This document shows, piece by piece, positions 1,964-46,991 of a DNA stretch of 49,223 bases. Position 1 is the first letter of the stretch. Every line of letters starts with the position of its first letter. The translations under genes were made by a program, and so were the position numbers. The DNA lies in assembly GCA_012271015.1 (NCBI GenBank), contig JAAXHD010000189.1:45962-95184 (forward strand), written 5' to 3'. The notes beneath the pieces are model-generated. The model was given only the letters and a program-made list of their open reading frames with translations. It made no database searches and was not told the DNA's origin. The DNA is from Candidatus Poribacteria bacterium. GTDB lineage: Bacteria > Poribacteria > WGA-4E > WGA-3G.

Positions 1964-2055
1964 GAGTCGGGAATCGGAGTGTTTTTGCTGGGGGTGTTTT
2001 TGCTGGGGTATTTCTGCGTATTGCTGGGGTGTTTCCTCAATTTCCGCCCTCCTAC
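1964..2055 (-). repeat. GTAG-type REP interrupted by three copies of the GTTTTTGCTKGGGT motif
   Basis: Flanks match the uninterrupted REP at 4257-4284; insert at 1981-2046. Confidence 0.8.
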
Positions 2056-2114
2056 AAAAGGACTGAATGCCTCAGCGAAAACGTTTGAATTCACTCGCGC
2101 AATATGCTATGATG

Positions 2115-3305
2115 TTAGCGGCGTGGGAAGAAGGTATCAATCCCTGCTTCAATGTCCTCAATTGGATGTCCGTGTTGCTGCTGATAACTTTCGTGGGTGC
2201 CGCGTTCTGTTGCTGTCAGGTCGGTCAGAGGGAAGGTAATGGCTTCTTTGCTACGATTCCCGGATTCGTTCATGGCGATGTTCATCTCTTGATCTTGCCT
2301 GGCGAGTGCGGCACCGTATTCAGGTTCGGTATCGTTAAGCACAGCCGTGGCGATGCTGAGCAGTTCATCTGCGACTGCCATTTGTCTCTCGGAAATGGCA
2401 TAGTTCTTGAGTGGATTTTCCCATGTCACGGTCTGTTCAGGTAATTGCAATTCGATTTTCTCAATAACTTCGACACCATCCACGTCAATTGTGGTTTGCT
2501 TGGGGCGGTAAGCGATCCCCAGCGCGCCAGATTGTAGATCGTCTGCGGGTGTTACGTAGATATCCTCACCGACAATGGTGCCTTTGCTACCATCAATCTG
2601 CGAAATGCCGGTTTGTCCTCGTCCCAAGGATCGGGCGTGAATCACGTTGGAATACACCATGAGGGCGGTCGCGTTGTTGTCGAATTCAATGAAGGCAAGG
2701 CTCCAGTTGTCGCTTGTATGATGCCGCTTCATCCGGTCGATAATCGGAATTACAGGACTTGTTTGCGTGATACCGAGCATAGACTTCGGTTCACCACCCG
2801 CACGGAGACGGAGCATGCTCATCCCATGATGACCCCCTTCGTGGAAAATTCGGTAGATTCGAGCGACTTCGCCGATAACGTCTGCTTCAATAACTTTTGA
2901 CAAAAACCGCTCACGTGGCACACGGTAATAGTTTTCAGCGATCTCAAGTTTGACGTTATTGGCTTTGGCTCGTTCAATCATCAGATCTGCTGTGGGGAGT
3001 GTAACAGTAATAGGCGTTTCACAAAGGATATGAACGCCGGCATCTGCCATAAAACATGCAATCGCGTGATGTGCGAGAGCCGGAACCGTAATATCAACGA
3101 CATCGAGTTGTTCATGTGCAACGAGATCCCGGACATTGGTGTACGGGGTCGCGCCATATTGCTTCGCGTAATTCGTTGCTACTTCCTCATCTATATCGCA
3201 AATTGCGACGAGATTGTAAATATCTTTGAGTTTCGGAATAACAGGCAGATGCGCACCTCCGCCTCGCCTTCCTGCACCAATTAAAGCGATATTGAGTTTG
3301 GACAT
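2115..3305 (-). CDS. Gfo/Idh/MocA family oxidoreductase
   Basis: N-terminal IALIGAG Rossmann motif, HILCETP (variant of EKP), AENY. Confidence 0.9.
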   Translation of the reverse strand: MSKLNIALIGAGRRGGGAHLPVIPKLKDIYNLVAICDIDEEVATNYAKQYGATPYTNVRDLVAHEQLDVVDITVPALAHHAIACFMADAGVHILCETPITVTLPTADLMIERAKANNVKLEIAENYYRVPRERFLSKVIEADVIGEVARIYRIFHEGGHHGMSMLRLRAGGEPKSMLGITQTSPVIPIIDRMKRHHTSDNWSLAFIEFDNNATALMVYSNVIHARSLGRGQTGISQIDGSKGTIVGEDIYVTPADDLQSGALGIAYRPKQTTIDVDGVEVIEKIELQLPEQTVTWENPLKNYAISERQMAVADELLSIATAVLNDTEPEYGAALARQDQEMNIAMNESGNRSKEAITFPLTDLTATERGTHESYQQQHGHPIEDIEAGIDTFFPRR

Positions 3306-3415
3306 GGCAGTCTCCTTCTATTGGCTATCAGTCATCGGCTATCGGTATTTCGTTTGTAATGAAGATAACAGTTATGTAGAAATGTGTCAACGGAAAACAT
3401 TGGTCACCGAAATAT

Positions 3416-3440
3416 GGGCAGGCACAAGACCTGCCCCTAC
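3416..3440 (-). repeat. GTAG-type REP
   Basis: Minus strand GTAGGGGCAGGTCTTGTGCCTGCCC: GTAG followed by a GGGCAGG/CCTGCCC stem. Confidence 0.7.
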
Positions 3441-3485
3441 ATTGTCTGACAAAACAGAGAGATTTACGGTAGTCGGTAAAAAATT

Positions 3486-4244
3486 ATGTTAGCCATCATC
3501 CTCAAAGAACTCCATTGCTACTGTAATTCTACCAAATATCGACGTATCCAGTTCCTGATTATATGTGCGCTCACATTGCTGTTGTTCGCAGCAACAGTTG
3601 AATTCTACGCCGACAGTCGAACGGGAAAACCGATTGATGTCGGGAAACAGACGTATACGTTTTTTATCATCGCCCTTTTCATTGTGCAATTTTGGGTGCC
3701 AAGGCATGCAGTTGAAGCGTGGCACATGGAAGGGATTCAAAGGTTTTATCAAGCACATCCACAAGGATATGGACAGAATGGAGCACTTCTGGCGTTAACG
3801 CCATTGACAAATTGGAAAATCTTGGTAGGTAAACTTAGCGCAATTGTGGTGTGGGCTCTGTGGAGTATTTGGTTAATAATTCCACTATTGGCACTCTCAA
3901 ATTATATAGGTGGTTTGACAGGGACGCAATTGGTGAGGTGCGTGGCAGTTTTATTGGTCAGTTGTATCTTTTATGCATTTATCGGTGTCAGTTTCGCGTT
4001 ATGGTATTCCCCGATTCGGGCAAAGAGTATCAGTTATGGGCTTATTCTGCTTACTACTTTTCTCCCACTGGTTCCAGTTTCGCCATTTAAGGCAATTCCG
4101 TTGTTCGCGGTAACAAGTCCACTGTGTTCCATTTTATCAATTCTTAACGCGGATACCATGCACTTGTGGATGTGGAATATCGGATTGTTTTGTGTGTTAT
4201 CCGTGTTGCTTTTTCTTATTCTGCTTAGATGGATGCGTTTTTAA
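3486..4244 (+). CDS. ABC-2-type transporter permease-like membrane protein
   Basis: About 6 TM segments; IILKEL start and LALTPLTNWKILVGKL motif typical of ABC-2 permeases. Confidence 0.65.
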   Translation: MLAIILKELHCYCNSTKYRRIQFLIICALTLLLFAATVEFYADSRTGKPIDVGKQTYTFFIIALFIVQFWVPRHAVEAWHMEGIQRFYQAHPQGYGQNGALLALTPLTNWKILVGKLSAIVVWALWSIWLIIPLLALSNYIGGLTGTQLVRCVAVLLVSCIFYAFIGVSFALWYSPIRAKSISYGLILLTTFLPLVPVSPFKAIPLFAVTSPLCSILSILNADTMHLWMWNIGLFCVLSVLLFLILLRWMRF

Positions 4245-4256
4245 GCTGAGGAATAA

Positions 4257-4284
4257 GAGTCGGGAATCGGAGTTCCCTCCTACA
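4257..4284 (-). repeat. GTAG-type REP, uninterrupted form
   Basis: Minus strand TGTAGGAGGGAACTCCGATTCCCGACTC with a GGGAA/TTCCC stem; same family as 1964-2055 and 14644-14688. Confidence 0.75.
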
Positions 4285-4320
4285 AGAGAACTGAATACCC
4301 TAACATTACCGACAGAAAGG

Positions 4321-4349
4321 TTGATTTTTACCTGGAAACGTGGTAATAT
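4321..4349 (+). promoter_or_regulatory. Putative sigma70 promoter
   Basis: TTGATT-N17-TAATAT with extended TG, upstream of the CDS at 4440. Confidence 0.45.
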
Positions 4350-4439
4350 GTAATCGGTTCTGGCAGGCATGTACCACCGTAAATCCTCTGGTAGTTCCTC
4401 CCTTCTTTTCAATGTTATTTTAATCCTATAAATATTCTT

Positions 4440-6386
4440 ATGGCACCTACAGCAAATTATTCATCCAATATTCAAGAAACATCGCGGTCTGGGCATCCGG
4501 GTGTAACCTTCCGCGCGATTCTGATCGGCATCGTCCTCATACCACCAAACACCTATTTTATCATGGCGAACCATCTCCGTTACTGGAGTACCCTCCCGAC
4601 AACGATGTCGCTGATTTACAACGTCGTGGTAACATTGGTGGTGTTGACGGGTCTCAATTTTTTGCTCAAATTGTTGCTACCCCGTTTTGCGCTCCGACAG
4701 GGAGAACTGCTCACTATCTACGTTATCCTTTCTATCTCATCAGCAATCGCGGGGCATGATATGATGCAGACAGTTGTGCCCGTTATTCCGAACGGTTTTT
4801 GGTTTGCGACACCCGAAAATGAATGGCAACAACTTTTCTGGCGGCATCTACCGAATTGGATGACCCTCAGTGAGTTATCCGTCTTGCAAGACTTCTACGA
4901 CGGCGATACAACCTTTTATACACAAAGGTATCTGGCAGCGTGGTGGGAACCGATTTTATGGTGGACTATTTTTTTATCTGTCCTGATTTGGGTGATGATT
5001 TGTATCGACCTGCTTCTTCGGAAGCAGTGGATTGAACGAGAGCGGCTCAGCTACCCGATCGTCCGTCTGCCGATAGAAATGACCTACTCAGATGGACGCC
5101 TCTTCAAAAACGGAATGTTCTGGGCAGGATTCGCGATTGCGGGAGGTATCGATCTAATTAACGGTATCCATGCGTTCTTTCCGGCATTTCCTGAGATACC
5201 GGTTCGTCAGGCAAACCTCGGCATCTATTTCACCGAAAAGCCGTGGGATGCAATCGGCTGGACTCCCGTTTATATTCTCTCATTCGGTGTAGGACTTGCT
5301 TTTTTAATGCCGTTGGAGATGTCGTTTTCGCTCTGGTTTTTCTACCTATTTTGGAAAGGGGAACGTGTTTTGGGACGAGCGATGGGACTTCAAGTTTTGC
5401 CCGGGTTCCCCTATGACGGACCGCAAGGTGTAGGCGCGTATCTGGCTATCGCCTGCTTTGCGCTCTACGGTGGACGCAAGCATTTTTATGCGATATTCAG
5501 AAATCTGATCCGAAAAGCAGATACAAACCTTCCACCTGAAATGCGAGACACAACGGATTATCGGTGGCCCGTAGCAGGATTAATCGGAGGCGTTCTCTTT
5601 CTCTTCATCTTCTCAAATCGAGGAGGGATGGCGCTCTGGATGATAACGTTGTATTTCGCCATCTATTATCTTCTTGCGCTGGGAATTACACGCGTTCGTG
5701 CTGAAGTGGGTCCACCGACCCATGAGATGTTCGTAGCAAACCCCCGACAATTTATCATAGATTCGCTCGGCTCGCGTATGATCCCGCCACCGAGCCTCAC
5801 GATGATGTCGCTCTATTTTGCTTTCAATCGCGGGTACCGTGCCCATCCAATGCCCCACACATTGGAAGGTTTTAAACTCGTGGAAGTGGCAAATATGCGT
5901 GCAGGCCGGATGGTAGTAGCACTGATGTGCGGCGTTTTTTTCGGCATCCTCGCCTCATTCTGGGCGTATCTGGTGGTTTCTTACAAGATAGGCGCGAATC
6001 CTGGGTTAGGGACTGGTGGTTACAATATGCTCCGCTCGTGGCTCTACTATCCGACAGAAACAAACATCCCCGCAGTGGGGTTTATGGGGGTCGGATTCCT
6101 GTTCACGGGATTACTGTGGTGGATGCGAACCCGTTTTCCGATGTTCCCGTTTCACCCTACTGGTTACGCCGTGGCGAGTAGCATGTGGACCTTCGGGTGG
6201 CTTTGGTTCTCTGTGTTAATTAGTTGGGGGATCAAAAACCTCATTTTGCGGTTCGGCGGTATTCGGCTTTATCACCGCGTGTTACCGCTCTTCTTGGGAC
6301 TCATTCTCGGTCAATTTATTGTAGGTGGCACGTGGGTGCTAATCCGACTGATCTGGGGTGTGTCTGTGTATTCGTTCTATCGGTAA
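4440..6386 (+). CDS. Large polytopic membrane protein (DUF6785/DUF6784-like, OPT-transporter-like)
   Basis: 648 aa with many TM helices; motifs RKQWIERERLSYPIVRLP, FPFHPTGY and LILRFGG recalled for this family. Confidence 0.75.
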   Translation: MAPTANYSSNIQETSRSGHPGVTFRAILIGIVLIPPNTYFIMANHLRYWSTLPTTMSLIYNVVVTLVVLTGLNFLLKLLLPRFALRQGELLTIYVILSISSAIAGHDMMQTVVPVIPNGFWFATPENEWQQLFWRHLPNWMTLSELSVLQDFYDGDTTFYTQRYLAAWWEPILWWTIFLSVLIWVMICIDLLLRKQWIERERLSYPIVRLPIEMTYSDGRLFKNGMFWAGFAIAGGIDLINGIHAFFPAFPEIPVRQANLGIYFTEKPWDAIGWTPVYILSFGVGLAFLMPLEMSFSLWFFYLFWKGERVLGRAMGLQVLPGFPYDGPQGVGAYLAIACFALYGGRKHFYAIFRNLIRKADTNLPPEMRDTTDYRWPVAGLIGGVLFLFIFSNRGGMALWMITLYFAIYYLLALGITRVRAEVGPPTHEMFVANPRQFIIDSLGSRMIPPPSLTMMSLYFAFNRGYRAHPMPHTLEGFKLVEVANMRAGRMVVALMCGVFFGILASFWAYLVVSYKIGANPGLGTGGYNMLRSWLYYPTETNIPAVGFMGVGFLFTGLLWWMRTRFPMFPFHPTGYAVASSMWTFGWLWFSVLISWGIKNLILRFGGIRLYHRVLPLFLGLILGQFIVGGTWVLIRLIWGVSVYSFYR

Positions 6387-6475
6387 ATTGTCTGAATCAG
6401 GTTTTTTCGATCTTCAAGGATTCCCGGGGTAAGAGAATTATTGAACTGAAGGCCCGTGCTTATACTGAAAAAGGC

Positions 6476-7296: not shown

Positions 7297-7323
7297 GGCA
7301 TCGGCAGGATAGGGACATTGCTC

Positions 7324-9382: not shown

Positions 9383-10762
9383 TTACGCCAATAGGTGATT
9401 TTCCCACCATGCGACGTAATCGGCATCGCTTATATCGTGTGAGAGTCCTCGCTTTTCCATGTCCTGCCAGAATCTTTCCGCCATATTTTCGTCCCAATAC
9501 GTGGTGACCTCTGAGGATTCAGGTATGTCTCCCATGTCCCCTGTTTTCGCTATCCACGAATCGAGTTGCGCGGCGAGTTCGCTTTGCACGGTGTCATAGC
9601 CTGGATCAGCGGCGAGGTTATTAATTTCATAGGGATCTGTTTCCAGATCATACAACTCTTCAGCTGGACGTGTCTGTTTCATGAAATGCTGTTGCGCGGC
9701 GGATAACTTACCCTTCGCGTCTAACAGTGGCATCAAGGTCCAGAGTGGATACTGCAGTTTCTTATAGCCGTTGAATTGCCTATAGGGACGCTCAGGGTGA
9801 TAATTGCGAATGAATTTATAGCGGTGTGTCCGTATGCATCGGATTCTGTCATCCGTTCCGTCACACCGATCTCTCGCCGCGAAGATAGCGTCGCGTGATG
9901 TAGCGTCTGTTCCGAGGAAAACTTGCCCTTGCATATACCCAGGAATATCAACACCAGCAAGGGATAACGTTGTTGGTGCGAAATCAACGCCGCTGATGAG
10001 TTTATCATCGAGGGTGTTAGGCTCAACATGTCCGTGCCATCGGACGATGAGTGGAATATGGATGCCCCCGTCATAGAGGAACTGCTTGCAACGGATATGC
10101 GCCCGTCCGTGATCGCTCATGAAGAAGATGATGGTATTGTCTGAGAGTCCTTCATCATCGAGTCGCTTAAGAATCTGTCCGACCTTCCTATCCAAGATTT
10201 GAATGCTTTCGAGGTAGAGTGCCCAATCCTTTCGGACGAGTGGATGATCGGGATAGTAAGGTGGCAATTCGACATCCTCAGGGGAAATAGGACGTTCTGG
10301 ATCGGGTTTGAAGACGCGGTGTGTATCAGGGATGTTAATCTGCGCGTAAAAAGGTTGCCCTTCGGGGCGTTCGCTCCAGTCGATGCCATCAAAAGGGTGT
10401 TCCCGCTGAAAGTTGAAATCGGTTTTTCCGGGGCGATCATAGGGTGGTCCTGGACTGTTGCAAGTAAAATAGCCTGCTTCCCGGAAGCAATCGGTGATGA
10501 GTTTCATATCCGTCCGTAACGGCTTATCACGGTTGCTGCGATGGTTGTGCGCATCAAAGTGCGTCTGATAGGTACCAGTGATCAGTGCGGAGCGACTCGG
10601 TGAGCAGACCGGGCATGTGACGAAAGTATTGGTATAACGAACACCTTCAGACGCGAGCCGATCAATATTTGGTGTCGCAACGGCAGGTGTGCCGTAACAG
10701 CCGAGATCAGGTGAGAGATCTTCACCGTAAATCCAGAGGACATTCGGTTGTGTTGTGGGCAT
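9383..10762 (-). CDS. Sulfatase (formylglycine-dependent)
   Basis: PNVLWI, CSPSRSALITG signature, SDHG, ELYDL. Confidence 0.95.
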   Translation of the reverse strand: MPTTQPNVLWIYGEDLSPDLGCYGTPAVATPNIDRLASEGVRYTNTFVTCPVCSPSRSALITGTYQTHFDAHNHRSNRDKPLRTDMKLITDCFREAGYFTCNSPGPPYDRPGKTDFNFQREHPFDGIDWSERPEGQPFYAQINIPDTHRVFKPDPERPISPEDVELPPYYPDHPLVRKDWALYLESIQILDRKVGQILKRLDDEGLSDNTIIFFMSDHGRAHIRCKQFLYDGGIHIPLIVRWHGHVEPNTLDDKLISGVDFAPTTLSLAGVDIPGYMQGQVFLGTDATSRDAIFAARDRCDGTDDRIRCIRTHRYKFIRNYHPERPYRQFNGYKKLQYPLWTLMPLLDAKGKLSAAQQHFMKQTRPAEELYDLETDPYEINNLAADPGYDTVQSELAAQLDSWIAKTGDMGDIPESSEVTTYWDENMAERFWQDMEKRGLSHDISDADYVAWWENHLLA

Positions 10763-10825
10763 ATTTTAATTATTCCTTGCGGATAAGTATCAGTTGCTTG
10801 TATCTTGGCGTTCTTCGCTTTCGAG

Positions 10826-10880
10826 TTGAAGAAACACCCCAGCAAGGGGAAATTGAGGAAATACCCAAGCAAAAACACCC
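10826..10880 (-). repeat. Two copies of the GTTTTTGCTKGGGT motif (one partial)
   Basis: Plus strand TTGAAGAAACACCCCAGCAA-GGGGAAATTGAGGAAATACCCAAGCAAAAAC-ACCC. Confidence 0.8.
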
Positions 10881-10946
10881 TGCGCCGTTTTTGCAGGCTT
10901 AGGTTTCGTTAGGTCTGCACAAACTAACAGTTTATGCTACAAGTAA

Positions 10947-11816
10947 CTACTCCGTTCCGTTGACATTGTCCACCACATAACGATTACGGAAGAGCGTTCG
11001 CCGGAGCGGCGGCATTTCAGCGAGGAGCTTCGGGGGCGGTTGGTACACCTTGGCGAAACCGCTATCAACAGGGCTATACAGGTTAAAAACGGCAATCCTA
11101 TCATTTTCAGTATTCGTCCATTCCGTGGCACTATGGGTGAGTGCTTCCGTGAAGAAGAGTAGCGAACCCCCTGGACAGCCGTAAGTCGACCAAATATCAG
11201 AATCAGGATTTTGGATATCAGGCGGTGCTGTGTAAACCGATTTGTGGCTACCGGTTACTAAAAGGGTCCCGCCCTGTCCTTTCTTCACCTCGTTCAATTC
11301 CCATACGATGCGGGTGTGTGGACTATAGCCTTTGCCGGGGAAAGCGTTGTAGTAGTGAACATCACCGGGAAAACGGAGTAAACCGTTGCCGTTGTGCGGT
11401 CCAAACCGTCCCATACCGGGAGCACGGTAAAAGAGACTTGCACTTTCAACGGCAAAACCGTAGCACTCTGGACTCGTTACGGCTGGATGCGCCGTAAATT
11501 CGTTGAGGAGTGAAACAACAAGGGGATGATCGATGAGTTTCTGCAGTGGACCTCCGACGGGACTGCGTTCATGCTCTGGAATAGATTCTGGGTCATCGTG
11601 CAGGCGGTAGCCGAAATCGCGCATCTCTTTGAGTTCTGATCCGGTAAATACCTCGGGGACCAGAAACCAACCATGCGTATCGAACTCATAGCGCTGCTCG
11701 GGTGTTAATTCGGGGATAGCTAAACCGTCGGCGTTTTGGGTCGGGAATTCGCATGTATCCGGTGGCAACAATGCTCCAAGCCATGGTTGCTGATTTTTGT
11801 CCGTCTGTTTTTCCAT
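10947..11816 (-). CDS. Phytanoyl-CoA dioxygenase (PhyH) family protein
   Basis: LTPEQRYEFDTHGW, GPHNG, VTGSHK, GSLLFFTEALTHS, R near the C-terminus. Confidence 0.85.
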   Translation of the reverse strand: MEKQTDKNQQPWLGALLPPDTCEFPTQNADGLAIPELTPEQRYEFDTHGWFLVPEVFTGSELKEMRDFGYRLHDDPESIPEHERSPVGGPLQKLIDHPLVVSLLNEFTAHPAVTSPECYGFAVESASLFYRAPGMGRFGPHNGNGLLRFPGDVHYYNAFPGKGYSPHTRIVWELNEVKKGQGGTLLVTGSHKSVYTAPPDIQNPDSDIWSTYGCPGGSLLFFTEALTHSATEWTNTENDRIAVFNLYSPVDSGFAKVYQPPPKLLAEMPPLRRTLFRNRYVVDNVNGTE

Positions 11817-11925
11817 TTTTTAATTTTTCCTCGCGGCTTTTTAATTTTTCCTTGCGGTTCGGTCAGGTCGGTTGCGATAATAAAGTGCCTTTCCGTATAT
11901 CCGCCCTCCGCTACGCTTACGGGCT
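11817..11925 (-). repeat. Start-codon-abutting repeat (element L), copy with a duplicated 3' end
   Basis: AGCCCGTAAGCGTAGCGGAGGGCGGATATACGGAAAGG...ACCTGACCGAACCGCAAGGAAAAATTAAAAAGCCGCGAGGAAAAATTAAAAA then ATG; similar to 25636-25724. Confidence 0.8.
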
Positions 11926-14643: not shown

Positions 14644-14688
14644 ATCGGGAATTGGAGTGTTTTTGCTGGGGTGTTTCCACCCTCCTAT
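14644..14688 (-). repeat. GTAG-type REP variant interrupted by one copy of the GT-rich motif
   Basis: Plus strand ATCGGGAATTGGAGT[GTTTTTGCTGGGGTGTTTCCA]CCCTCCTAT; compare the empty copy at 4257-4284. Confidence 0.8.
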
Positions 14689-17376: not shown

Positions 17377-18789
17377 TCACTGACGAAACGGTGCATCCAG
17401 TTGCGTCTGCACAAGCCGCTCCAAAACTTGCAGGCGCAACCCCGTTTCAATATCCGCAACTTCAGATCTACCGGCGAGGTTCTGTATCTCATTTGGATCG
17501 TTTTGCACATTAAATAAAAGATAAACCTCACCGTTTGCATTGAGTGCTATCTTCCATTCCCGATTTAAAAGCATAATCTCGCCTTCTATCTCGGAAATTG
17601 CAAAGTCTCGGTGTGTCGCTTCAGGTTGCGTCAACACGGGACACAACGATTTTCCGAATTGGCGATGCTCTAACTCGCCACCCGCCATCTCAACAAGCGT
17701 CGGACCGATGTCGATCCATTCCACTGGACTTTCACAAATTGTTCCGGTGGGAGGGGTGTTTTTGCTTGGGTGTTCCCTCGATTCCTTAGGGGTTCGCACG
17801 AGGAGCGGAATCCGAACTGCCCCGTTCAGAAAATTGCTTTTATAGATGAGTCCATAATCCCCATTCATTTCACCATGGTCGGAGGTATGGACAATGATTG
17901 TATTTCCGAGTTCACCGCGCGCCTCAATTGCGTCAAGAATCTCGCCGATCTGATCATCGATAAGTGTCACGCTACCTGCGTAATTCGCCCGGAGTCTTCC
18001 GATTTCGCCGGGTTCAAACGTCGGGTTCACACGCTCCATGAGCCTGTCCAAATGTCCTGTGGGACGCCTTTCCATAAATGGACGCGGGATCGCTGGCAGC
18101 ATGTCCTTTGGATCGTACATGCTGGCATAAGGTTCCGGTGTATCCCACGGCTCATGGGGTCCTCCGAAACTCACCCAGCAGCACCAAGGTTCAGCCCGCT
18201 TATAGTTCTGGAGGTATCGCTTCGCCTGTTGTCCGACGTAGACATCGGCGTAATCTTCGAGTCCCAACGTCGAAGGACGGACGAGATACGGTTTCGTGCC
18301 GAACCGCTCGCGATAATCGGCGCGGTAAGCATCCCATAAGCCTTTTTCCTCCCACATAGCAGTCATGTGGGATAGGACATTCGCGCTTGCCCTCGGTCCA
18401 CCGATCTCGTTCACATCGTCCAATCCATAAGCGTTCATTAACCCTTCGCGTTCGCGCAGATCACCACTGTGCGGATGGAGATGCGTTTTCCCGAAAAGAC
18501 TCGTCCGATATCCAGCATCACGCACGGCTTGCATCCATGTCGGCGTTTCGGCAGGCATTTGGTGATTCATGTTGTTCCAGACGTGGGTGTTATGGGGATA
18601 CAACCCGGTCGCCAAGCTGAGTCGCGTCGGGATACAGACCGGCGATGTAGTGACGCAGTTTGTGAATCGGATACCTTCACCGGCAATCCGATCCAAATTT
18701 GGGGTCTGGACCCAATCGCCACTGCAACCCATCGCGTCCCAACGCTGTTGGTCTGTCATAAGGAGAAGGATATTCGGGGTGGTTGCCAT
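17377..18789 (-). CDS. Sulfatase (choline-sulfatase-like)
   Basis: PNILLLMTDQQR, CIPTRLSLATG, GKTH, PHEP, SDHG. Carries an in-frame repeat insert (ESREHPSKNTPPT). Confidence 0.93.
   Translation of the reverse strand: MATTPNILLLMTDQQRWDAMGCSGDWVQTPNLDRIAGEGIRFTNCVTTSPVCIPTRLSLATGLYPHNTHVWNNMNHQMPAETPTWMQAVRDAGYRTSLFGKTHLHPHSGDLREREGLMNAYGLDDVNEIGGPRASANVLSHMTAMWEEKGLWDAYRADYRERFGTKPYLVRPSTLGLEDYADVYVGQQAKRYLQNYKRAEPWCCWVSFGGPHEPWDTPEPYASMYDPKDMLPAIPRPFMERRPTGHLDRLMERVNPTFEPGEIGRLRANYAGSVTLIDDQIGEILDAIEARGELGNTIIVHTSDHGEMNGDYGLIYKSNFLNGAVRIPLLVRTPKESREHPSKNTPPTGTICESPVEWIDIGPTLVEMAGGELEHRQFGKSLCPVLTQPEATHRDFAISEIEGEIMLLNREWKIALNANGEVYLLFNVQNDPNEIQNLAGRSEVADIETGLRLQVLERLVQTQLDAPFRQ
17747..17783 (+). 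repeat. REP variant plus GT-rich motif inside the sulfatase CDS
   Basis: GTGGGAGGGGT[GTTTTTGCTTGGGTGTT]CCCTCGATT. Confidence 0.8.
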
Positions 18790-19814: not shown

Positions 19815-19898
19815 GTTCCGGGGCGAAATGTGTGTAGAACCGCCCTATCCTGCAAGGTCTAAGCCCCAGCGGGGGTTTTTGCTTGGGTGTTTCTTCAA
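19815..19898 (+). repeat. GCCCC-N-GGGGC hairpin repeat family copy ending in the GT-rich motif
   Basis: GGGGCGAAATGTGTGTAG...AGCCCCAGCGGGG[GTTTTTGCTTGGGTGTTTCTTCAA]; relative at 41549-41627. Confidence 0.65.
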
Positions 19899-25635: not shown

Positions 25636-25724
25636 AGCCCGTAAGCGTAGCGGAGGGCGAATATACGGAGAGGAACGTTAGTTATCCAAACCCACCTCAC
25701 CGAACCGCAAGGTATAATTAAAAG
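25636..25724 (+). repeat. Start-codon-abutting repeat (element L)
   Basis: AGCCCGTAAGCGTAGCGGAGGGCGAATATACGGAGAGG...ACCTCACCGAACCGCAAGGTATAATTAAAAG then ATG at 25725. Confidence 0.8.
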
Positions 25725-26328: not shown

Positions 26329-26862
26329 ATGGAAGATCAACTCAAAATGGCTCGTCACAGTTTAGAAAATCTGCCGACGCTCCAGTGTCCTGAAGGGTAT
26401 CATATCCGCACCTACCGACAAGGAGACGAAACACATTGGGCGCGAATCATGGACATCGCCTTCGTAGACCAAGGCAGAACCACCCAAGATACCTACACTA
26501 ACGTTATTAACCAACCCAATTTCGATCCAGATGGCTTTTGTTTCGTTATTCACAAAGATATGCCTATCGGTACAGCGTGTGCTTGGCAGGAATCTCTTCG
26601 TGGCAAACCGATTGGCTACATTGACATGCTTGCTGTGCTGCCGGAGCACACAGGGCATAGACTCGGAAAATGGTTAACAGTGTTTCTCTTGCACTATTTT
26701 AAAGAGCGACGTGTGGCATCCGTAATGTTAGACACAGACGATTTTCGACTCCCCGCAATCAAAAATTATCTCAACTTAGGGTTCGTTCCTGTTTATGCGG
26801 GTGAAAACCACCTGCTACGTTGGCGGAGTATCTTTGAAAAGCTGGACCTTTTCCAAAAATGA
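26329..26862 (+). CDS. GNAT family N-acetyltransferase (tandem paralog)
   Basis: LAVLPEHTGHRLGK and PAIKNYLNLGF; collinear with the previous gene. Confidence 0.9.
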   Translation: MEDQLKMARHSLENLPTLQCPEGYHIRTYRQGDETHWARIMDIAFVDQGRTTQDTYTNVINQPNFDPDGFCFVIHKDMPIGTACAWQESLRGKPIGYIDMLAVLPEHTGHRLGKWLTVFLLHYFKERRVASVMLDTDDFRLPAIKNYLNLGFVPVYAGENHLLRWRSIFEKLDLFQK

Positions 26863-28652
26863 GAGTACTTCTCGCGGTGAGAAACTGTTTTCGTTTATCG
26901 AATAGCTTTGTTATACCCGCGATCCTCATCAGTGGCTTCAGTTTCCGACTCATCGGCATAAACATCGGCTTGCCTGATTCTCCCGACCCCCGTGAAGTGC
27001 TAATCGCACGAGATGTTCTGAATCTAATCCACTTCACAGCCCCTCCTCAAATCTACAACTGGCCCGGAACGGCATGGTTTTACATCATTGCGGTGGTAGG
27101 TAAATTGCTGTCGCTTACGGGTTGGCAATTAACAGAAGCCCGCGTAATCTTATTGGCACGCGGTATCAACGTTCTGTTGTCTACAGCAACACTTTGGTTC
27201 ACCTACCGCATCGGCGTTCACTGTTTCAGCAAACGTATAGGTCAGATTGCGACCGGATTACTCACTGTGGCGATGTTACATGCCACGAATGAATCGCGTT
27301 TTGCACTTGTTGACATCCCCGCGACTTTCTGTGTAACGTTGTTTCTCTATCTTGTGACGCGTGAGCGGTCTTCCTCAGACGCGCTCACATTTCAAACAGC
27401 GGTATGGCTCGGCGTTATCGCAGGAGTTGGTTTCGCAGTCAAATTTACAACTGTTTTCGCCAGTTTCTCTCTGCTGGTTTTCACTCTAAGTGAAGACTTT
27501 CCTCCACGCGGTAGGGGCAGTTTGAAACCACATCTACCAGGGAGCTCCGTAACTCCTAAAAAATTAGCAACAATCATCGGCGTTTCCGCACTAACCTTTA
27601 CGCTCCTCTGCCCCTATTGGCTCATTGATCTGGTTTCGCCAGAGTGGAATTTCTTCTTTGAGGATTTCTGGTACGAAGCTACCCATTACCATCGCGGGCA
27701 CTTCGGTCTCATCGCTGCAGCGGAATCTGGCTTACTACATCGGTTTATCTATCTGTGGACGCTCCTGAAATGGGGCATGGGGCTGCCACTTGCACTCCTC
27801 GCGAGTTTGGGAGTCGTGTGTGCGATGGTGGAGATAAAAAGAAATCGCGAGCATGGGAAAACACCCAAGCAAAAACACTCGCTTCTACAAAAAGAGAAGG
27901 CGGTTGGTAAGTTTGCTACAGCAGAAGTGCTCTTACTAACTTTCGTCATTCCCTATCTACTCTTTATCGGGATACATAAAGTTAAGTTCGCACGTCATCT
28001 ACTCATACTCTATCCGACGCTCACTGTGCTCGCCGCTGCCGCATTCGTCCGTTTTCCGAACATTGTAAAAACCCTATTTCAGCTGGTCCATCCACGCGAG
28101 ACTCTGAATTCCCCGCATTCCACTGAAAGATTCAATACATTTGGGAAATGGTTTGGCATCGTTTTGGGGGGTGTTGTCGTGCTTTACTCGTTAATTTATA
28201 CCCTTTCCTTCGCCTCTATCCAATTCTCGCAACCCACTAAAATTGCAGCATCCGACTGGATAGCCACACACATTCCTCAAGAGGACTCCATTGCTATTGC
28301 GCCAGAGACCTTATTCGACTGGCTTCTTCCTGAGTTAGATTTCGTCGTAACAGATGAAAAGGTGAAATGGGTTCTTATCCTCGTGCCAGATCTTGAAGTG
28401 TTCCGAAAATACCAAGAGACACCTCAACGCTATCAAGCTGAGGATTGGTACCCTCTCAGTGAAATTGGATTCGAGGAAACGCTTGCGTTTTACGAGCGAG
28501 TCTTAGGGGAAGGAAGTCGATATGAATTGCACAAGACCTTCCGGTGCGCGCCGAAGTTCTTCGGTCTCGAAATAATATCCGATAGTGGTGCCCCGTTTCC
28601 GATGCGAGCACTTGCACATCCAGAACTCCGCATCTATCGGTATGTCAACTGA
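26859..28652 (+). CDS. Glycosyltransferase family 39 (ArnT/PMT-like, GT-C fold)
   Basis: Polytopic; PDPRE after TM1, ESRFALVDIP, GFAVKF. Contains two in-frame repeat-derived inserts. Confidence 0.8.
   Translation: MRVLLAVRNCFRLSNSFVIPAILISGFSFRLIGINIGLPDSPDPREVLIARDVLNLIHFTAPPQIYNWPGTAWFYIIAVVGKLLSLTGWQLTEARVILLARGINVLLSTATLWFTYRIGVHCFSKRIGQIATGLLTVAMLHATNESRFALVDIPATFCVTLFLYLVTRERSSSDALTFQTAVWLGVIAGVGFAVKFTTVFASFSLLVFTLSEDFPPRGRGSLKPHLPGSSVTPKKLATIIGVSALTFTLLCPYWLIDLVSPEWNFFFEDFWYEATHYHRGHFGLIAAAESGLLHRFIYLWTLLKWGMGLPLALLASLGVVCAMVEIKRNREHGKTPKQKHSLLQKEKAVGKFATAEVLLLTFVIPYLLFIGIHKVKFARHLLILYPTLTVLAAAAFVRFPNIVKTLFQLVHPRETLNSPHSTERFNTFGKWFGIVLGGVVVLYSLIYTLSFASIQFSQPTKIAASDWIATHIPQEDSIAIAPETLFDWLLPELDFVVTDEKVKWVLILVPDLEVFRKYQETPQRYQAEDWYPLSEIGFEETLAFYERVLGEGSRYELHKTFRCAPKFFGLEIISDSGAPFPMRALAHPELRIYRYVN
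27510..27540 (+). repeat. Degenerate GTAG-type REP inside the CDS
   Basis: GGTAGGGGCAGTTTGAAACCACATCTACC, encoding RGRGSLKPHLP in a hydrophilic loop. Confidence 0.5.
27844..27888 (-). repeat. GTAG-type REP plus GT-rich motif inside the CDS
   Basis: Minus strand GTAGAAGCGAGT[GTTTTTGCTTGGGTGTTTTCCCAT]GCTCGCGAT; encodes REHGKTPKQKHSLL on plus. Confidence 0.8.
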
Positions 28653-37125: not shown

Positions 37126-38204
37126 AGAACGAAAAAACAGACCGTGTAGGAGGGGTTTTTGGGGAAACACCCAAGCAAAAACACCCCGATTCCCTTTTTA
37201 AATTAGGGGGCGTGTTTCTACTGATTTTCGGAATGTTCTGTCTACCCTTAGCACATCTTGATGCCGATTCGATTAAGTTCGCAACACTCGCGCCAAAGGG
37301 TTCCACATGGATGAACAATTTTGAAGCGATGGGGAAAGAAATTCGCGCCAAAACAGACGGTGATCTCCGACTCCGTATCTATCCGAATGGGGTCCAGGGA
37401 GATGAACTTGATGTTATCCGCAAGATGCGCGCAGGATTGATCCACGCAGGTGCTATGACCGCTACAGGTCTCGGTGAGATACAGGAAGAGGTCCTGATTT
37501 TTCAACTGCCTCGAATGTTCAGAACCTACGAAGAACTTGATTATGTCCGAGACTACCTCCGCGCAGATCTCGACGAAGCCTTTATGGATGCGGGGTATGT
37601 CCTACTCGGTATGGGAGACATCGGCTTTTATTATATATTCAGTAACCAACCTATCCGCAATATTGCCGACCTTCAATCCACAAACGTCAAGATGTGGGCT
37701 CGTCCGGGCGACAAAATTGCGCTTGAGTTTTACAAAAACGCCGAGATTGCAACTGTGCCGAGAGAGGTTACACAGGTACTGTCTTCCCTCTACTCAGGGC
37801 ACCTCAACACCTTGGCTGCATCACCATATGTCACGGTCGCTCTGCAATGGCACGATAAATTCAAGTACATGACGAACCTTCCTGTTAATGTTGGTGTTGG
37901 CGCGACGGTCATAACAAAGGAAAAGTTCGATGAACTTTCTCCGGAGCTGCAGAAGGTTGTGCGTGAAACCGTGGACGCATATCAGGGCGATTTAATTCAG
38001 AATATCCGCAAGGATAATGAAAGGGCGCTTGAGGCACTGCAAAAAAAGGCAGGCATTGAAGTGGTTGAATTCGAGGATGACTCTCGGGAAGCGTGGGATG
38101 CCATCGCTATGGAAACCCACAAAGCCCTCGTCGGTGAGATATACTCGCAAAAGTTTCTTGACAAGATTAATGCCCTTTTGCAAGCGTACCGAGAGAAAAA
38201 TTAA
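37122..38204 (+). CDS. dctP: TRAP transporter substrate-binding protein DctP (TatP-like)
   Basis: IKFATLAPKGSTW, YPNGVQGDE.DVIRKMR; N-terminus carries a repeat-derived insert. Confidence 0.9.
   Translation: MKNEKTDRVGGVFGETPKQKHPDSLFKLGGVFLLIFGMFCLPLAHLDADSIKFATLAPKGSTWMNNFEAMGKEIRAKTDGDLRLRIYPNGVQGDELDVIRKMRAGLIHAGAMTATGLGEIQEEVLIFQLPRMFRTYEELDYVRDYLRADLDEAFMDAGYVLLGMGDIGFYYIFSNQPIRNIADLQSTNVKMWARPGDKIALEFYKNAEIATVPREVTQVLSSLYSGHLNTLAASPYVTVALQWHDKFKYMTNLPVNVGVGATVITKEKFDELSPELQKVVRETVDAYQGDLIQNIRKDNERALEALQKKAGIEVVEFEDDSREAWDAIAMETHKALVGEIYSQKFLDKINALLQAYREKN
37146..37190 (+). repeat. GTAG-type REP plus GT-rich motif (reverse orientation) inside the dctP 5' end
   Basis: GTAGGAGGGGTTTTT[GGGGAAACACCCAAGCAAAAAC]ACCCCGAT, encoding VGGVFGETPKQKHPD. 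Confidence 0.8.
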
Positions 38205-42508: not shown

Positions 42509-42563
42509 ACCCACACATACATTGACTTCTCAGGCAATTTTGGAAAGTTACCCAAAATACGAG

Positions 42564-42587
42564 AAAAGTTACCAAATGGTAACTTTT
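42564..42587. promoter_or_regulatory. Perfect 11-bp inverted repeat, candidate operator
   Basis: AAAAGTTACCA-AA-TGGTAACTTTT, with an extra half site AAAGTTACC at 42544-42552. Confidence 0.45.
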
Positions 42588-42680
42588 TAGAAATTAAGTT
42601 ATAAATAAATTAACATATGTTATCTATAAAAACTGATAAAAAACAAACACCGAATAGCCCTACTATGCTCTGAAATTCAT

Positions 42681-42709
42681 TTGCGATTTTTCACCGTGTG
42701 TGGTATTAT
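42681..42709 (+). promoter_or_regulatory. Putative sigma70 promoter
   Basis: TTGCGA-N17-TATTAT with extended TG. Confidence 0.5.
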
Positions 42710-42736
42710 TATATCCTTGAGGAGGCATCAAGACTC

Positions 42737-43495: not shown

Positions 43496-43500
43496 GAAAT

Positions 43501-43614
43501 GACTATCAGTTGTCAGGGCGGGTTGCTAACGCAACCCTATTAGTCGTCAGCATAAAGCGTTTGAGTTAACCAAAGCCCTTTTTACTGACTTCCAATAGCC
43601 GATAGCCGATGGCT
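43501..43614. repeat. H7-family element
   Basis: GACTATCAGTTGTCAG...nested GGGTTGCTAACGCAACCC...CCAATAG-CCGATAG-CCGATGG. Confidence 0.6.
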
Positions 43615-43627
43615 CAAAAATAAAAAT

Positions 43628-45523
43628 ATGAAGAAAATAGACAAAGCCGAATACGAGAAACGACTCAATAAAATCACACAAATTTTTGAAGATTTGGTTG
43701 TTCACGCCGATGAACAAGCCACTTACCGGTGTCCCTACAAAAATCGCTTTGACCACTGCACAGCGAAGTTCGGTTGCCGAAACCAGCGAAAGATTGATGA
43801 AGGGACAGGGCTTTTGTGTGTCGGAGACGACAAGTTAGATTATCGCAGCGCGTGGGAGACTGACGCGCCTGACCCGACATCAGAAACACACAGCACCGGC
43901 ACAATTACGTGTGACGGAAAAGCTTACCAACTCACCCCTGGGAAAACTATTTTTGACTACGCAGACGACTTAACCGTCCAAGTACCCACCTCCTGTTTCC
44001 GAACTGGACAGTGCCACGAATGTATCGTTGAGATTAAGCGTGGTATGGACAGTCTTCGCCGCCCAAATGAAGCAGAAGCCTTCCTTCGAGACAACTACCG
44101 TCTCGCCTGCCAAGCAATTGTTCTTGATATTGACAAAGACATCGAGTTCACACCACTGCGACGCTCACCAAGGATCCTGACACACGCTACCACGACGGAC
44201 AGTAGTGGGCCCGGATTGGATCCACGCGTTACGCATCGCGATGGCGTTGTCTACTACAACAATGAGTCTATTGACCGTTACCGCGGGCATCTTTATGGAC
44301 TCGCTTTGGATATCGGAACAACGACAGTGGTGGCAAATCTGGTGGATTTAGAGAGCGGAAAAACGGTTTCTGTCAGTTCCTTTGAAAACCCACAACGTTT
44401 TGGCGGTAGCGATATTATGAATCGCATCAGCTACGACGGTGAATTCAAAGGCGAACTGCGTCGCTCGTTGATTGCCGCACTCAACAGCGAAATCATGGAG
44501 ATGTGTGAACGCCACAACTTCGTCCGCCAAGAGATTTATGAAATCGTCGTTGCTGGGAACACAACAATGCGCGATATCTTCTTCAAACATGACGTTCAGA
44601 GTATTGGACAGAAGCCGTATAAATCACTGATTGAACATGAGTATCGGGAAGGGACCCGCTCAACCACTTCGCTCACTGAAAAAGTGCGTCGTTTAGGTCT
44701 CCGTGCGAATCCGAAGGCGATGGTCTATAGCCTGCCGTTGATCGCTAGTCATGTTGGGGCAGATGTTGCCGCGGATTTAGTCTCTATCGACATCCCCGCA
44801 CAAGATGAGATCATTATGTTGGTTGATGTCGGGACAAACACAGAAGTGGTCGTCGGAAACGCGAAACGGATGGTCGCGGCATCATGTCCGGCTGGTCCTG
44901 CTTTTGAAGGGGGCGGCATTGAATACGGAATGCCTGCTTACCCGGGTGCTATTGAGTCTGTGAAGTGGAACGACAGTCAATTCGATTATGAGACGATTAG
45001 TGGTGAGACACCAGAGGGGTTATGCGGTTCTGGGTTGATTTCGCTTCTCGCTGAGCTACGTCGGAATAATCAGATGAGTCCAAAGGGCGTTTTTGAGGAC
45101 AGAAAACAACGCGTTATGTCTCTCTTGCCGGAACACGGTATCACCTTCTCACGTGATGATGCAAGTAACTTGGCACAAGCAAAGGCGGCAAATTACTGTG
45201 GACAATATATCGTTCTGCGGCACTTCGGCTGCGTTCCAAAAGACATTACGAAACTCTTTCTGGCAGGTGGTTTTGCCAATTATGTTAATCTACAAGACGC
45301 TATTGAAATCGGATTTCTCGCACCGGTTCCAGAAGCAAATGTCGTCAAGATTGGTAATGCCGCGGTCGCAGGTGCGACAGCTGTCCTGCTTTCTGAGAAA
45401 AAACGCGCAGATATTGAAGCGTTTGTCAACAATATTGAGCATATTGAGTTGGAGACAACCCCCGATTTCTTTGAGGTATTCGTGGAAGGTTGTCAATTCA
45501 AGCCAATGCCAGCAACCTTGTAA
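43628..45523 (+). CDS. ASKHA-domain reductive activator of corrinoid proteins (RACo/RamA-like) with 2Fe-2S domain
   Basis: CFRTGQCHEC...RLACQ ferredoxin; DIGTTT, NPQ, DVGTNTE, CPAGPAFEG, GLCGSG, LAGGF, GNAA. Confidence 0.92.
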   Translation: MKKIDKAEYEKRLNKITQIFEDLVVHADEQATYRCPYKNRFDHCTAKFGCRNQRKIDEGTGLLCVGDDKLDYRSAWETDAPDPTSETHSTGTITCDGKAYQLTPGKTIFDYADDLTVQVPTSCFRTGQCHECIVEIKRGMDSLRRPNEAEAFLRDNYRLACQAIVLDIDKDIEFTPLRRSPRILTHATTTDSSGPGLDPRVTHRDGVVYYNNESIDRYRGHLYGLALDIGTTTVVANLVDLESGKTVSVSSFENPQRFGGSDIMNRISYDGEFKGELRRSLIAALNSEIMEMCERHNFVRQEIYEIVVAGNTTMRDIFFKHDVQSIGQKPYKSLIEHEYREGTRSTTSLTEKVRRLGLRANPKAMVYSLPLIASHVGADVAADLVSIDIPAQDEIIMLVDVGTNTEVVVGNAKRMVAASCPAGPAFEGGGIEYGMPAYPGAIESVKWNDSQFDYETISGETPEGLCGSGLISLLAELRRNNQMSPKGVFEDRKQRVMSLLPEHGITFSRDDASNLAQAKAANYCGQYIVLRHFGCVPKDITKLFLAGGFANYVNLQDAIEIGFLAPVPEANVVKIGNAAVAGATAVLLSEKKRADIEAFVNNIEHIELETTPDFFEVFVEGCQFKPMPATL

Positions 45524-45605
45524 TTGGCAGTCGGTTGTCAGTTCTCGGTTAAGAGACTTTCGGCTCACAATAAAGGGATCTTCTTGAGATAGCCTCAAAA
45601 CCCAT

Positions 45606-45836
45606 AGCCCGTAATGAAATTAGGTTTCCTTACCGCAAGGTAAAATTAAAATATTTCTTCGATCTTTACAGGATTATAGGTTTCCAGGATAATCCTAAGC
45701 ACATAGCCCGTAATGAAATTATGCCTTAAATGGCATAATTTGTCTTTGCTTTACATTTGGAGGGCGGACATACGGAGAGGAACGTGAAACCATCAGTACA
45801 CCTCACCGAACCGCAAGGTAAAATTAAAATATTTCG
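45606..45836 (+). repeat. Two element-L variants (one internally deleted, one with an insert)
   Basis: CATAGCCCGTAATGAAATTA occurs at 45603 and 45702; ACCGCAAGGTAAAATTAAAATATTTC occurs twice; the second copy overlaps the start of the next CDS. Confidence 0.75.
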
Positions 45837-46833
45837 AGAACGTTTGAGGTCCGAGGAACCGATTTTATACGACGGCGGATTCGGTTCGCAGTTATTCGCA
45901 CGGGATATAGAGCTCGCCAATAGTGCCCTCGCCAACGCTCTACATCCCACTGCTGTCATTGACATTCATTCGGATTATATCAACGCAGGTGCTGAGGCGA
46001 TCGGGACAAACACGTTTGTGGCATCTCCGCTTCACTTGGAGATGGCAGGTCAAGACCTATCCGATGCCAAACGACTCATACGACTCGCTGTCCAACACGC
46101 AAAAACAGCCGTTGCCCAGAGTGGACAAGATGTCTACATTGCTGGCTCTGTGGGACCCTCTCCCGGCGCGATTGAAGCCGATAGCGGCGATACCACTTTC
46201 GGCATTCCAAATGAAGATGCGAAAGAGGCGCATAAATTGGTTATCCACACCCTCGCAGAAGAAGGCGTGGATTTCCTCTGCCTCGAAACGATGTTCTCTG
46301 CGAAAGAAGCCGCGATGGCTGTAGACGTTGCCCGCGAGACAGGAATCCCTATTGCTGTGAACATGACTTACAAATGGACAAAGGAACGGCGCACCGGCAA
46401 GGTTATCTACCGAACAGACTGGGGAAATTCACCAACGGATCTGCTCGATATTCTCATGAACAACGAACTTTCGGATGGAGATTCGCTGTTGGAATCCGTG
46501 AGTATCCTCGGCGTGAACTGCGGTGCTGAATCCAGACGTGATGAACATACTGGGATGCCTTATGCGATTGCTGGAACCCAGCAGTTGCACACAGCACTCA
46601 CCGAAGTAGGCATTGATGGTAAACAGATGATGGCATATCCCAACGCTGGCATGCCGAAGCTTGATGAAAACCATCAAACTGTCTATACGCAGACCCCAAC
46701 AGAAATGGCAGGCTATGTTCCCACACTCCTTGAGGCGGGGGCTTACTTAATAGGCGGCTGTTGTGGAACAACGCCAGCACATATCAAAGCCTTCCGCGAA
46801 GCAATCGCGTCGTATCGTTCAACAGAAGCGTAA
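45784..46833 (+). CDS. Homocysteine S-methyltransferase family protein (stand-alone MetH Hcy domain-like)
   Basis: YDGGFGSQL, HSDYINAGA...TNTF, AGSVGP, ETM, GVNC, YPNAG, IGGCCGTTP; GTG at 45784 after GGAGAGG (start uncertain). Confidence 0.92.
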   Translation: MKPSVHLTEPQGKIKIFRERLRSEEPILYDGGFGSQLFARDIELANSALANALHPTAVIDIHSDYINAGAEAIGTNTFVASPLHLEMAGQDLSDAKRLIRLAVQHAKTAVAQSGQDVYIAGSVGPSPGAIEADSGDTTFGIPNEDAKEAHKLVIHTLAEEGVDFLCLETMFSAKEAAMAVDVARETGIPIAVNMTYKWTKERRTGKVIYRTDWGNSPTDLLDILMNNELSDGDSLLESVSILGVNCGAESRRDEHTGMPYAIAGTQQLHTALTEVGIDGKQMMAYPNAGMPKLDENHQTVYTQTPTEMAGYVPTLLEAGAYLIGGCCGTTPAHIKAFREAIASYRSTEA

Positions 46834-46878
46834 TTGTTGGAAGAAGTAGAACAATGTCTGGAAAAAAATTAAAGAGCG

Positions 46879-46991
46879 CGTAGCTTGGAATGAAATGGAA
46901 AACGGGTAGATGGAGAGGAACTTTCAGGAGCCCTGGGGAAACACCCAAGCAAAAACACCCACCTGAGCGAACCGCAAGGAAAATTAAAAAA
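46879..46991 (+). repeat. Degenerate element L carrying the GT-rich motif
   Basis: AGCTTGGAATGAAATGGAAAACGGG..ATGGAGAGGAAC...[GGGGAAACACCCAAGCAAAAAC]ACCCACCTGAGCGAACCGCAAGGAAAATTAAAAAA then ATG. Confidence 0.7.

Follow-up and report, generated by a model that had tools for sequence, protein, structure and literature searches.

The 49,223-nucleotide stretch of DNA analysed here (the window; positions 45962-95184 of contig C107) comes from a Candidatus Poribacteria assembly of 4.95 Mb (439 contigs, 47.7% GC) that we call G000, with its relatives labelled G002, G006 and so on. It carries many copies of a GT-rich oligonucleotide, E. This mobile insert is about 23 bases long, obeys a simple target rule and enters its sites without a target duplication and with a small loss of target bases. 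E is a real repeat and is specific to one genus. The filled state is the derived one, a part of the insertions is recent, a site can be hit repeatedly, and both the arrays and the central part of the unit are remodelled in place.

A pattern search of the window recovers all eight loci that a first-pass annotation of this DNA had named, in the orientations given there, and the 5′ flanks that it had listed (GGAGT, AGGGT, GGAGT, GGGGT, GGGG, CGAGT, GGGGT and TGGGT). The pattern GTTTTTGCTKGGGT, with at most one mismatch, matches the window nine times compared with 0.06 matches expected, and none of 100 shuffles attained nine. Tandem Repeats Finder (TRF) reports a 15-base tandem at 1979-2008. Throughout the G000 assembly there are 129 exact E cores, which seed roughly 208 arrays; this number rises to 240 when tail and hybrid modules also serve as seeds. 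E is found in assemblies deposited as whole chromosomes, in single contigs of 5-6.7 Mb and in contigs from a separate DNA study, and is thus neither an artefact of assembly nor an adapter, the trivial origin that the annotation had wanted checked. Specifically, contigs from that study that are identical to the window over kilobases span the copies at 14659-14679 and 17758-17774. Contigs from RNA libraries cover the window region evenly; these libraries may contain DNA.

The repeat has a narrow distribution. A public scan of one genome per prokaryote species, with the core plus RTTTC as the query, returned at least 113 stretches, and the best 80 of these all belong to Candidatus Poribacteria assemblies, many of them whole chromosomes. 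Exact cores were then counted in 81 Poribacteria genomes, G000 included, for which a reversed-pattern control gives 0-2 matches. Members of the same genus (g1) carry from 0 to 179 cores, with 19 of 20 relatives positive, one genome with none (G073) and one with a single copy (G089). The sister genus has 0-3 and the rest of the phylum 0-1. Three high-copy genomes are complete single contigs, namely G081 (179 copies), G006 (119) and G018 (102). Strong conservation of the core extends over species with 77-93% identity. A 101-base query (window positions 1960-2060) found no match in plasmid or phage collections. A scan of IMG/VR yields ten stretches, of which the flanks suggest that four are Poribacteria-like and six are chance matches in unrelated contigs.

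The complete unit, GTTTTTGCTKGGGY followed by a 9-base tail of the form RTTTC(Y0-3)CA, is about 23 bases long (range 17-25) and has two defined ends. Nearly all arrays open with the core GTTTTTG[C/A]T[G/T/A]GGG, which is followed by optional cores of 13-15 bases, optional modules and then at least one tail RTTTCYYCA, such that an array holds 1-3 cores and 1-7 tails. Head-to-tail tandem copies, as proposed for the window, are seen in arrays genome-wide. The same proposal held that the 3′ end runs freely for variable lengths, and this is wrong: the unit ends with RTTTC, zero to three pyrimidine-rich bases and CA, and the longer 'GTTTCCTCAATTTCC' that had been read as one sequence consists of two or more 9-base tails in tandem. 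Most of the apparent variability comes from such tails and from slippage in several registers. Both junctions are defined, which is an outcome that the annotation itself had listed as speaking against its interpretation.

At least four tandem registers (13-15, 9, 10 and about 18 bases) are found, along with hybrid modules. The register of about 18 bases results from CCTTGCTTGGGT, a partial core behind a tail, and the sequence RTTTCTGCGK is repeated with a period of 10. A composite of the core, ATTTCTGCGTATTGCTGGGGT and GTTTCCTCAATTTC is present in two unrelated hosts. The core centres CTT, CTG and ATA, the core ends GGGT and GGGC, and the tail variants combine almost freely, and subfamily linkage is weak (GGGC versus tail, p = 0.24; CTG versus tail, p = 0.007, uncorrected for relatedness). 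Neither strand of E has a significant fold (z-scores of -0.8 to +1.1). The two ends, GTTTTTGC and GTTTCYYCA, hold no mutual inverted copies, so terminal inverted repeats of the kind found in miniature inverted-repeat transposable elements (MITEs) are absent.

The target rule is simple. Insertion occurs directly behind a purine-rich ...RRG(G/T), usually on the loop side of the 5′ arm of a hairpin belonging to a repetitive extragenic palindrome (REP), or immediately 3′ of the hairpin in a repeated 5′ leader of about 95 bases. A G-rich 5′ junction, claimed from the window as GRGT, holds genome-wide: among the 191 arrays that lack a degenerate core upstream, to which the junction statistics refer, 185 have G at position -2, 186 have T (132) or G (54) at position -1, and 178 have a purine at position -3. 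This G-run, which overlaps the first G or GT of E by 1-2 bases, is found in empty sites too, and therefore belongs to the target. The upstream 14-mers fall into 57 contexts, 51 of which end in GT or GG and 40 of which are singletons. The largest clusters are one REP type, REP A (35 arrays), two leader types (20, and 15 + 11), a GTAGGAGCGAG REP (12) and a CCCC-AGC-GGGG hairpin (10). The earlier statement that the hosts are unrelated is supported. The copies at 17758 and 27853, however, lie in frame inside coding sequences (CDSs) and not in extragenic repeats.

REP A has a 5-bp stem with covarying A/T, either GGGAA..TTCCC or GGGAT..ATCCC, and when it is filled simply, its 4-base interval TTCC becomes 21-25 bases. 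The empty site that had been noticed within the window is such a copy, in which the REP at 4262-4284 reads GGGAATCGGAG-TTCC-CTCCTAC. By our count of 165 REP A rows, 86 are empty (49 TTCC, 26 ATCC, 11 other), 26 are filled by a simple unit and about 13 by a composite one. All 32 REP A copies of G073 are empty, and 8 of the 54 in G081 are filled; these empty copies show that the hosts exist without the insert. Orientation is not uniform along chromosomes. In G073, 26 REP A copies, at 0.07-2.3 Mb and 3.9-5.0 Mb, have plus orientation and six, at 0.9-3.7 Mb with five of them at 2.6-3.7 Mb, have minus orientation. For the first 100 of the 179 E copies in G081, 48 of 68 are on the minus strand before approximately 1.88 Mb, and 24 of 32 are on the plus strand after it. 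The orientation of REP A in G073 and of E in G081 tracks chromosome arm or gene direction.

The 95-base leader carries the hairpin GCCTGC-AACAACGGC-GCAGGC, then ...CACCTGACCGAACCGCAAGGAAAAATTAAAA, and a Shine-Dalgarno-like AAGGA. The genome holds 127 copies; 53 of these have their first ATG 9-11 bases downstream of the CGCAAGGNA motif, and 73 have the base length, that is, they lack E. When a leader is filled, the CG between GGAGG(G) and GAT... is replaced by the whole unit GTTTTTGCTKGGGY-RTTTC(Y0-3)CA. No Rfam family matches the leader, and Rfam finds no matches anywhere in the window. Close relatives differ in whether an entire leader or an entire REP is present, and because entire leader copies come and go in this manner, the leader has the appearance of a mobile leader or promoter cassette. 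At 11817-11857, upstream of a gene that ends at 11816, the 3′ end of the leader has undergone a 21-base tandem duplication (CCGCGAGGAAAAATTAAAA twice).

Comparisons of orthologous sites establish that E is gained. We aligned G000 with 800 kb of the G006 genome by using flank anchors (flanks about 93% identical) and obtained an orthologous interval for 22 G000 arrays and for 22 of 29 G006 arrays, with about 6-7 entries per set being chance one-mismatch hits in CDSs. Three sites are filled in G000 alone and three in G006 alone; at six more, both genomes are filled, with arrays that are identical (one site), nearly identical (two) or rearranged (three). Six empty/filled pairs are precise. One is a clean 20-base insertion without duplication (filled in G006), and in the other five, 1-3 target bases are replaced; a seventh site falls outside this scoring. 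These pairs bear out the view that target duplications and inverted ends are absent, and the empty alleles that the annotation had suggested looking for in related genomes exist, both as paralogous and as orthologous sites.

Three leaders illustrate the polarity and turnover of the insertions. At the first, five genomes that are more distant hold no insert (GGAGG-G-CG-GAT), and G000, G006, G014 and G018, which form a clade, are filled, each with a different centre (CTGA, ATAGGGC, a 34-base hairpin insert called X1, and X1 plus a further insert); G002 has one empty and one filled copy of this leader. The second leader is filled in G006 alone, with G000, G018, G007 and G015 empty. At the third, G006 and G018 carry different arrays; G000 and G014 have no insert and share the same CG. 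Similar states are seen at the window loci. The array at 1981 is an expanded form of a simple unit in G006 (a core and GTTTCC only), and in G018 the REP that precedes this gene is empty. The array at 10827 is represented in G006 by a different array (three cores, two tails) between flanks that are about 93% identical, and the copy at 14659 corresponds to an empty REP in G006. A loose contig end at 10876 (run X5) may point to an extra unit in a strain that is nearly identical; it is a single contig, perhaps from another locus, and was not used. The upstream context of the copy at 19875, AAGCCCCAGCGGGG, defines a cluster of ten arrays, and the second leader site used at 46935 is also occupied in other leaders.

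Table 1 Copies of E and their host repeats in the window.
Feature	Position	Strand	Details
Composite array in REP A (REP 1969-2055)	1981..2046	+	Cores of 15 and 14 bases, 21-base ATTTCTGCGTATTGCTGGGGT module, two tails GTTTCCTCA-ATTTCCG
Empty REP A	4262..4284	+	Stem-loop GGGAA-TCGGAG-TTCCC, then TCCTAC; sequence read
Array behind hairpin of 95-base leader, upstream of sulfatase gene 9383-10762	10827..10876	-	Order: core, two tails (ATTTCCTCAATTTC), partial core (CCCTTGCTGGGGT), tail GTTTCTTCA
Single unit in REP A (14647-14688)	14659..14679	+	GTTTTTGCTGGGGTGTTTCCA; pattern match
Unit replacing loop of REP (GTGGGAGGGGT...) inside sulfatase CDS 17377-18789 (-)	17758..17774	+	In frame, ...EHPSKNT...
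Unit directly behind CCCC-AGC-GGGG hairpin repeat	19875..19898	+	GTTTTTGCTTGGGTGTTTCTTCA(A)
Unit in REP loop (GTAGAAGCGAG...GCTCGCGAT) within open reading frame 26859-28652 (PMT_2 domain)	27853..27876	-	In frame, ...REHGKTPKQKHSLL...
Unit in REP A-like repeat, 5′ end of DctP-type gene	37161..37182	-	GGGAATCGGGGT / unit / CCCCAAAAACCCCTCCTAC
Antisense unit at second site of leader (leader end 46972-46990)	46935..46956	-	Behind ...CAGGTGGGT
Repeated 5′ leader, about 95 bases	10764-10900 (-), 11818-11857 (-), 25705-25723 (+), 45633-45651 (+), 45811-45829 (+), 46972-46990 (+)

Genes themselves are also altered. Arrays of E lie within long open frames in 14 of 208 cases, compared with 855 of 2000 random positions, and the C/A-rich strand is the sense strand in 13 of the 14. 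The sulfatase gene at 17377-18789 carries a REP together with E as ...KESREHPSKNTPPTG..., and its relatives show stepwise states, with the REP alone in G018, G004 and G012 and neither repeat in G006 and G014. The interval measures 151, 166 or 178 bases in six genomes, and the differences are multiples of three. In this manner, the REP and E add short hydrophilic peptides in frame to the sulfatase and to a membrane protein with a PMT_2 domain (26859-28652, plus strand).

E is not the only sequence that enters such sites. Short unrelated inserts, X1-X3, do so as E does, which makes this a more general process. These families of 26-100 bases (X1, a hairpin CGCTGAATGC...GCATTCAGCG; X2, AATGTAATACAAGGAA plus a hairpin GGATTTAGTC...GACTAAATCC; X3, 26 bases) are found in REP loops, in leader hairpins and within E, for example at C107:124154 and C335:1779 and on contigs C127, C149 and C65. 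Copies of X2 sit in REP loops behind ...GCGG, ...GAGG or ...TGGG, and all three families are found inside E between GTTTTTGC and GGGTGTTTC. X1 is also part of a separate repeat with at least five copies that ends at contig edges. Small inserts are thus nested one inside another in this genome.

Among described repeats, the small dispersed repeat (SDR) class of the Nostocaceae best fits E, judging by analogy. SDR1-8 were reportedly described in Nostoc punctiforme and other Nostocaceae by Elhai et al. in 2008 (Genome Res). They nest in other repeats and hairpins, and to our knowledge no enzyme is assigned to them and their mechanism is unsolved. In one report, SDRs are dispersed sequences of about 20 bases, tandem in variable number, that 'might be mobile' (PMC2884548), and another states that they insert at a short specific site, with HIP1 proposed for SDR5 (PMC5861425). 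Set against SDRs by description, E is likewise a dispersed repeat of about 20-27 bases with many copies, a variable tandem number and a restriction to one lineage. Its mobility is evident from orthologous filled and empty sites, with six pairs and with gains polarised by outgroups. E differs in its target: it inserts behind RRG(G/T) on the arms of hairpins, and in leaders it takes the place of CG. HIP1 was judged not to be enriched (136 copies versus about 64 expected), and so a cyanobacterial identity, which we had considered, was rejected.

Other known systems resemble E in part. REPs and REPINs with their REP-associated tyrosine transposases (RAYTs) are short extragenic repeats that reach hundreds of copies (PMC3116915). 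The hosts of E are GTAG-headed hairpins of that kind and Y1_Tnp genes are present, but E itself is non-palindromic, does not fold, sits inside REPs and has a copy number that does not seem to track Y1 genes. Like MITEs and the palindrome elements related to IS200/IS605, E is non-autonomous and numerous, and it shares with the IS200/IS605 kind the lack of a duplication and a position 3′ of a short motif. In contrast, E has 17-25 bases and has no terminal inverted repeats, subterminal hairpins or autonomous partner. MITEs and IS200/IS605-derived elements are several-fold longer. Telomerase products are also G/T-rich, with a start that pairs with their own end and with head-to-tail copies, whereas E has internal chromosomal sites, a defined 3′ end and several registers, and no reverse transcriptase (RT) was found in three complete high-copy genomes.

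We give about an even chance to the reading that E is a very small dispersed insertion element of one Poribacteria genus, SDR-like in nature, that is copied by a polymerase from existing copies. Where a hairpin is stalled or nicked, the polymerase would make new copies from existing ones through a template switch or a fill-in primed by microhomology, for which the G or GT overlap of 1-2 bases at the 5′ junction would serve. Housekeeping enzymes or a further factor might be the agents. E could then spread further by riding on mobile hosts (REPs and leaders) and by gene conversion among hosts, and slippage could give rise to tandem cores, tandem tails and hybrid modules.

Several points weigh against this reading. 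Neither an enzyme nor a donor molecule was found, and the copying step is one that we infer. Microhomology of 3-4 bases alone cannot account for the frequency of this one sequence. The presence or absence of E in leaders and REPs could partly reflect gene conversion between paralogous hosts instead of new insertion, and a change of CGG to CAG beside filled sites fits such conversion. Furthermore, variant positions combine almost freely, so that clear copy-from-copy lineages could not be discerned. The systematic comparison spans 800 kb of one relative. Finally, both ends are rather precise, which is more characteristic of a cassette or recombinase than of sloppy template switching.

A less probable explanation, which we would entertain only tentatively, is that dedicated machinery other than a canonical RT swaps 1-3 bases at G-rich hairpin junctions for a preformed or templated cassette of about 23 bases, and does likewise with X1-X3. 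If this is correct, E would represent a class of mobile DNA smaller than any transposon, in principle common to the cyanobacterial SDRs, and the machinery could remodel 5′ leaders and protein loops in frame.

It is similarly doubtful that a RAYT-like or IS200/IS605-like HUH (Y1) enzyme mobilizes E in trans as a non-autonomous single-stranded DNA transposon, for which the active form would be GTTTTTGC-[X1/X2 hairpin]-GGGTGTTTC and the 23-base form an internally deleted remnant. Elements of the IS200/IS605 kind typically insert in an oriented manner 3′ of a short motif, cause no duplication and lack inverted ends, and their orientation is expected to flip by chromosome region. E matches this behaviour in its orientation-specific insertion 3′ of a short motif and in its lack of duplications and inverted ends; its targets are hairpin repeats, and the orientation of REP A does flip by region. 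Moreover, longer forms share the two ends of E, and at one orthologous site short and X1 forms alternate. Y1_Tnp matches are present in all five genomes tested and in G000. However, they are equally present in E-free G073, and G081, the richest genome, has only two hits, both weak and one broken by a stop codon. E lies near 1 of 11 Y1 loci, and none of these loci is bracketed by E ends. E also has no hairpin of its own, and by our count short forms (about 200) far exceed hairpin forms (about 30). Instead of the ragged scar that a deletion would leave, the short forms almost always have CTT, CTG or ATA at their centre, and target bases are lost at insertion. When an autonomous long form bounded by E ends was sought in G000, every version ended within approximately 170 bases. 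For Y2_Tnp, the count of zero in the five genomes says nothing, because the control also matched nowhere.

Selection on a functional motif is a poor candidate. By this account, E would be, for example, a binding site for protein or RNA in 5′ leaders, a Rho-loading C/A-rich tract on the opposite strand or a recombination signal, spread mainly by gene conversion among the repeats that host it. Several of the larger contexts are indeed 5′ leaders directly before start codons, with a fixed orientation, the core is conserved across the species noted above, and among the first 100 of the 179 copies in G081 the prevailing orientation changes at around 1.88 Mb. Yet most leaders and REP A copies lack E, one genome of the genus has none and another has a single copy. 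E also occurs in either orientation, inside CDSs and in unique contexts, its arrays differ between close relatives, and selection leaves its entry into new contexts unexplained.

The telomerase-type mechanism that the first-pass annotation favoured, in which one short template is copied onto 3′ ends at nicks, fares no better, and we consider it improbable. A polymerase would anneal the ...GGGT 3′ end of a nick to a terminally redundant template, copy GTTTTTGCTKGGGT, realign, run into the tail and leave an end to be joined, which implies an RNA complementary to E, ...ACCCMAGCAAAAACACCC... Such a process would be in keeping with the fixed 5′ start behind G(G/T), with a core end (GGGT or GGGG) that resembles the target and shares G or GT with it at the junction, with the head-to-tail cores, and with the composite of core, ATTTCTGCGTATTGCTGGGGT and GTTTCCTCAATTTC, which looks in its two unrelated hosts as if it came from one long template. 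However, the 3′ end is defined, X1-X3 occupy the same sites, and the several registers and the freely combining variants of core (CTT, CTG, ATA) and tail would need several templates.

The enzyme search points the same way. Profile RVT_1 has no match in G081, G006 or G018, the complete high-copy genomes, or in G073, and matches only a split fragment in G075; Prim-Pol gave no match in the five genomes searched. In G000, RVT_1 matches four short contigs of 1.2-4.3 kb (C53, C297, C45 and C161). C53 encodes a 778-aa protein in which an RT is fused to a GIY-YIG nuclease domain, the architecture of Penelope-like retroelements, and the contig begins with TTAGGG-like repeats. The RT and GIY-YIG fusion of C53 was not found in 30 relatives, nor the RT of C45 in 40. 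Given this absence and the TTAGGG-like start of C53, the RT contigs are probably DNA of the animal (sponge) host in the bin, and the C53 fusion, which had first looked like the predicted enzyme, was dropped. A templated step of the primer-extension type may instead be carried out by some other polymerase.

As far as we could find, mobile DNA of about 20 bases was previously known only from the Nostocaceae, and our literature search yielded no description of such repeats in Poribacteria, which would be a second, unrelated lineage. Because empty and filled orthologues are clean and copy numbers span 0-179 within one genus that has many complete genomes, the enzyme question is open to comparative genomics. 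E also acts on genes directly in an uncultured sponge symbiont, through 5′ leaders and through in-frame hydrophilic peptides in enzymes such as a sulfatase. Its presence in many leaders and as in-frame peptides in enzymes makes it a source of fast regulatory and protein variation in this symbiont.

Two further kinds of repeat were encountered in G000. The k-mer table contains overlapping 14-mers with 52 copies each; they spell GTTTCAATTCCAAACTGGTTCGATTAAAAG or its complement, some 30 bases in all, which has the look of a repeat from clustered regularly interspaced short palindromic repeats (CRISPR). Tandem heptamers are also prominent. There are 40 exact heptamer runs of at least three copies, versus 2-4 runs for periods of 5, 6, 8 and 9, together with 108 imperfect tracts. 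Heterocystous cyanobacteria have tandem heptamers, the short tandemly repeated repetitive (STRR) sequences, of which those in G000 are reminiscent. The forms in G000 include CAGCAGT, CAGTTAT and CAGCCGT, and an example flanks a site near position 7028 of contig C111.

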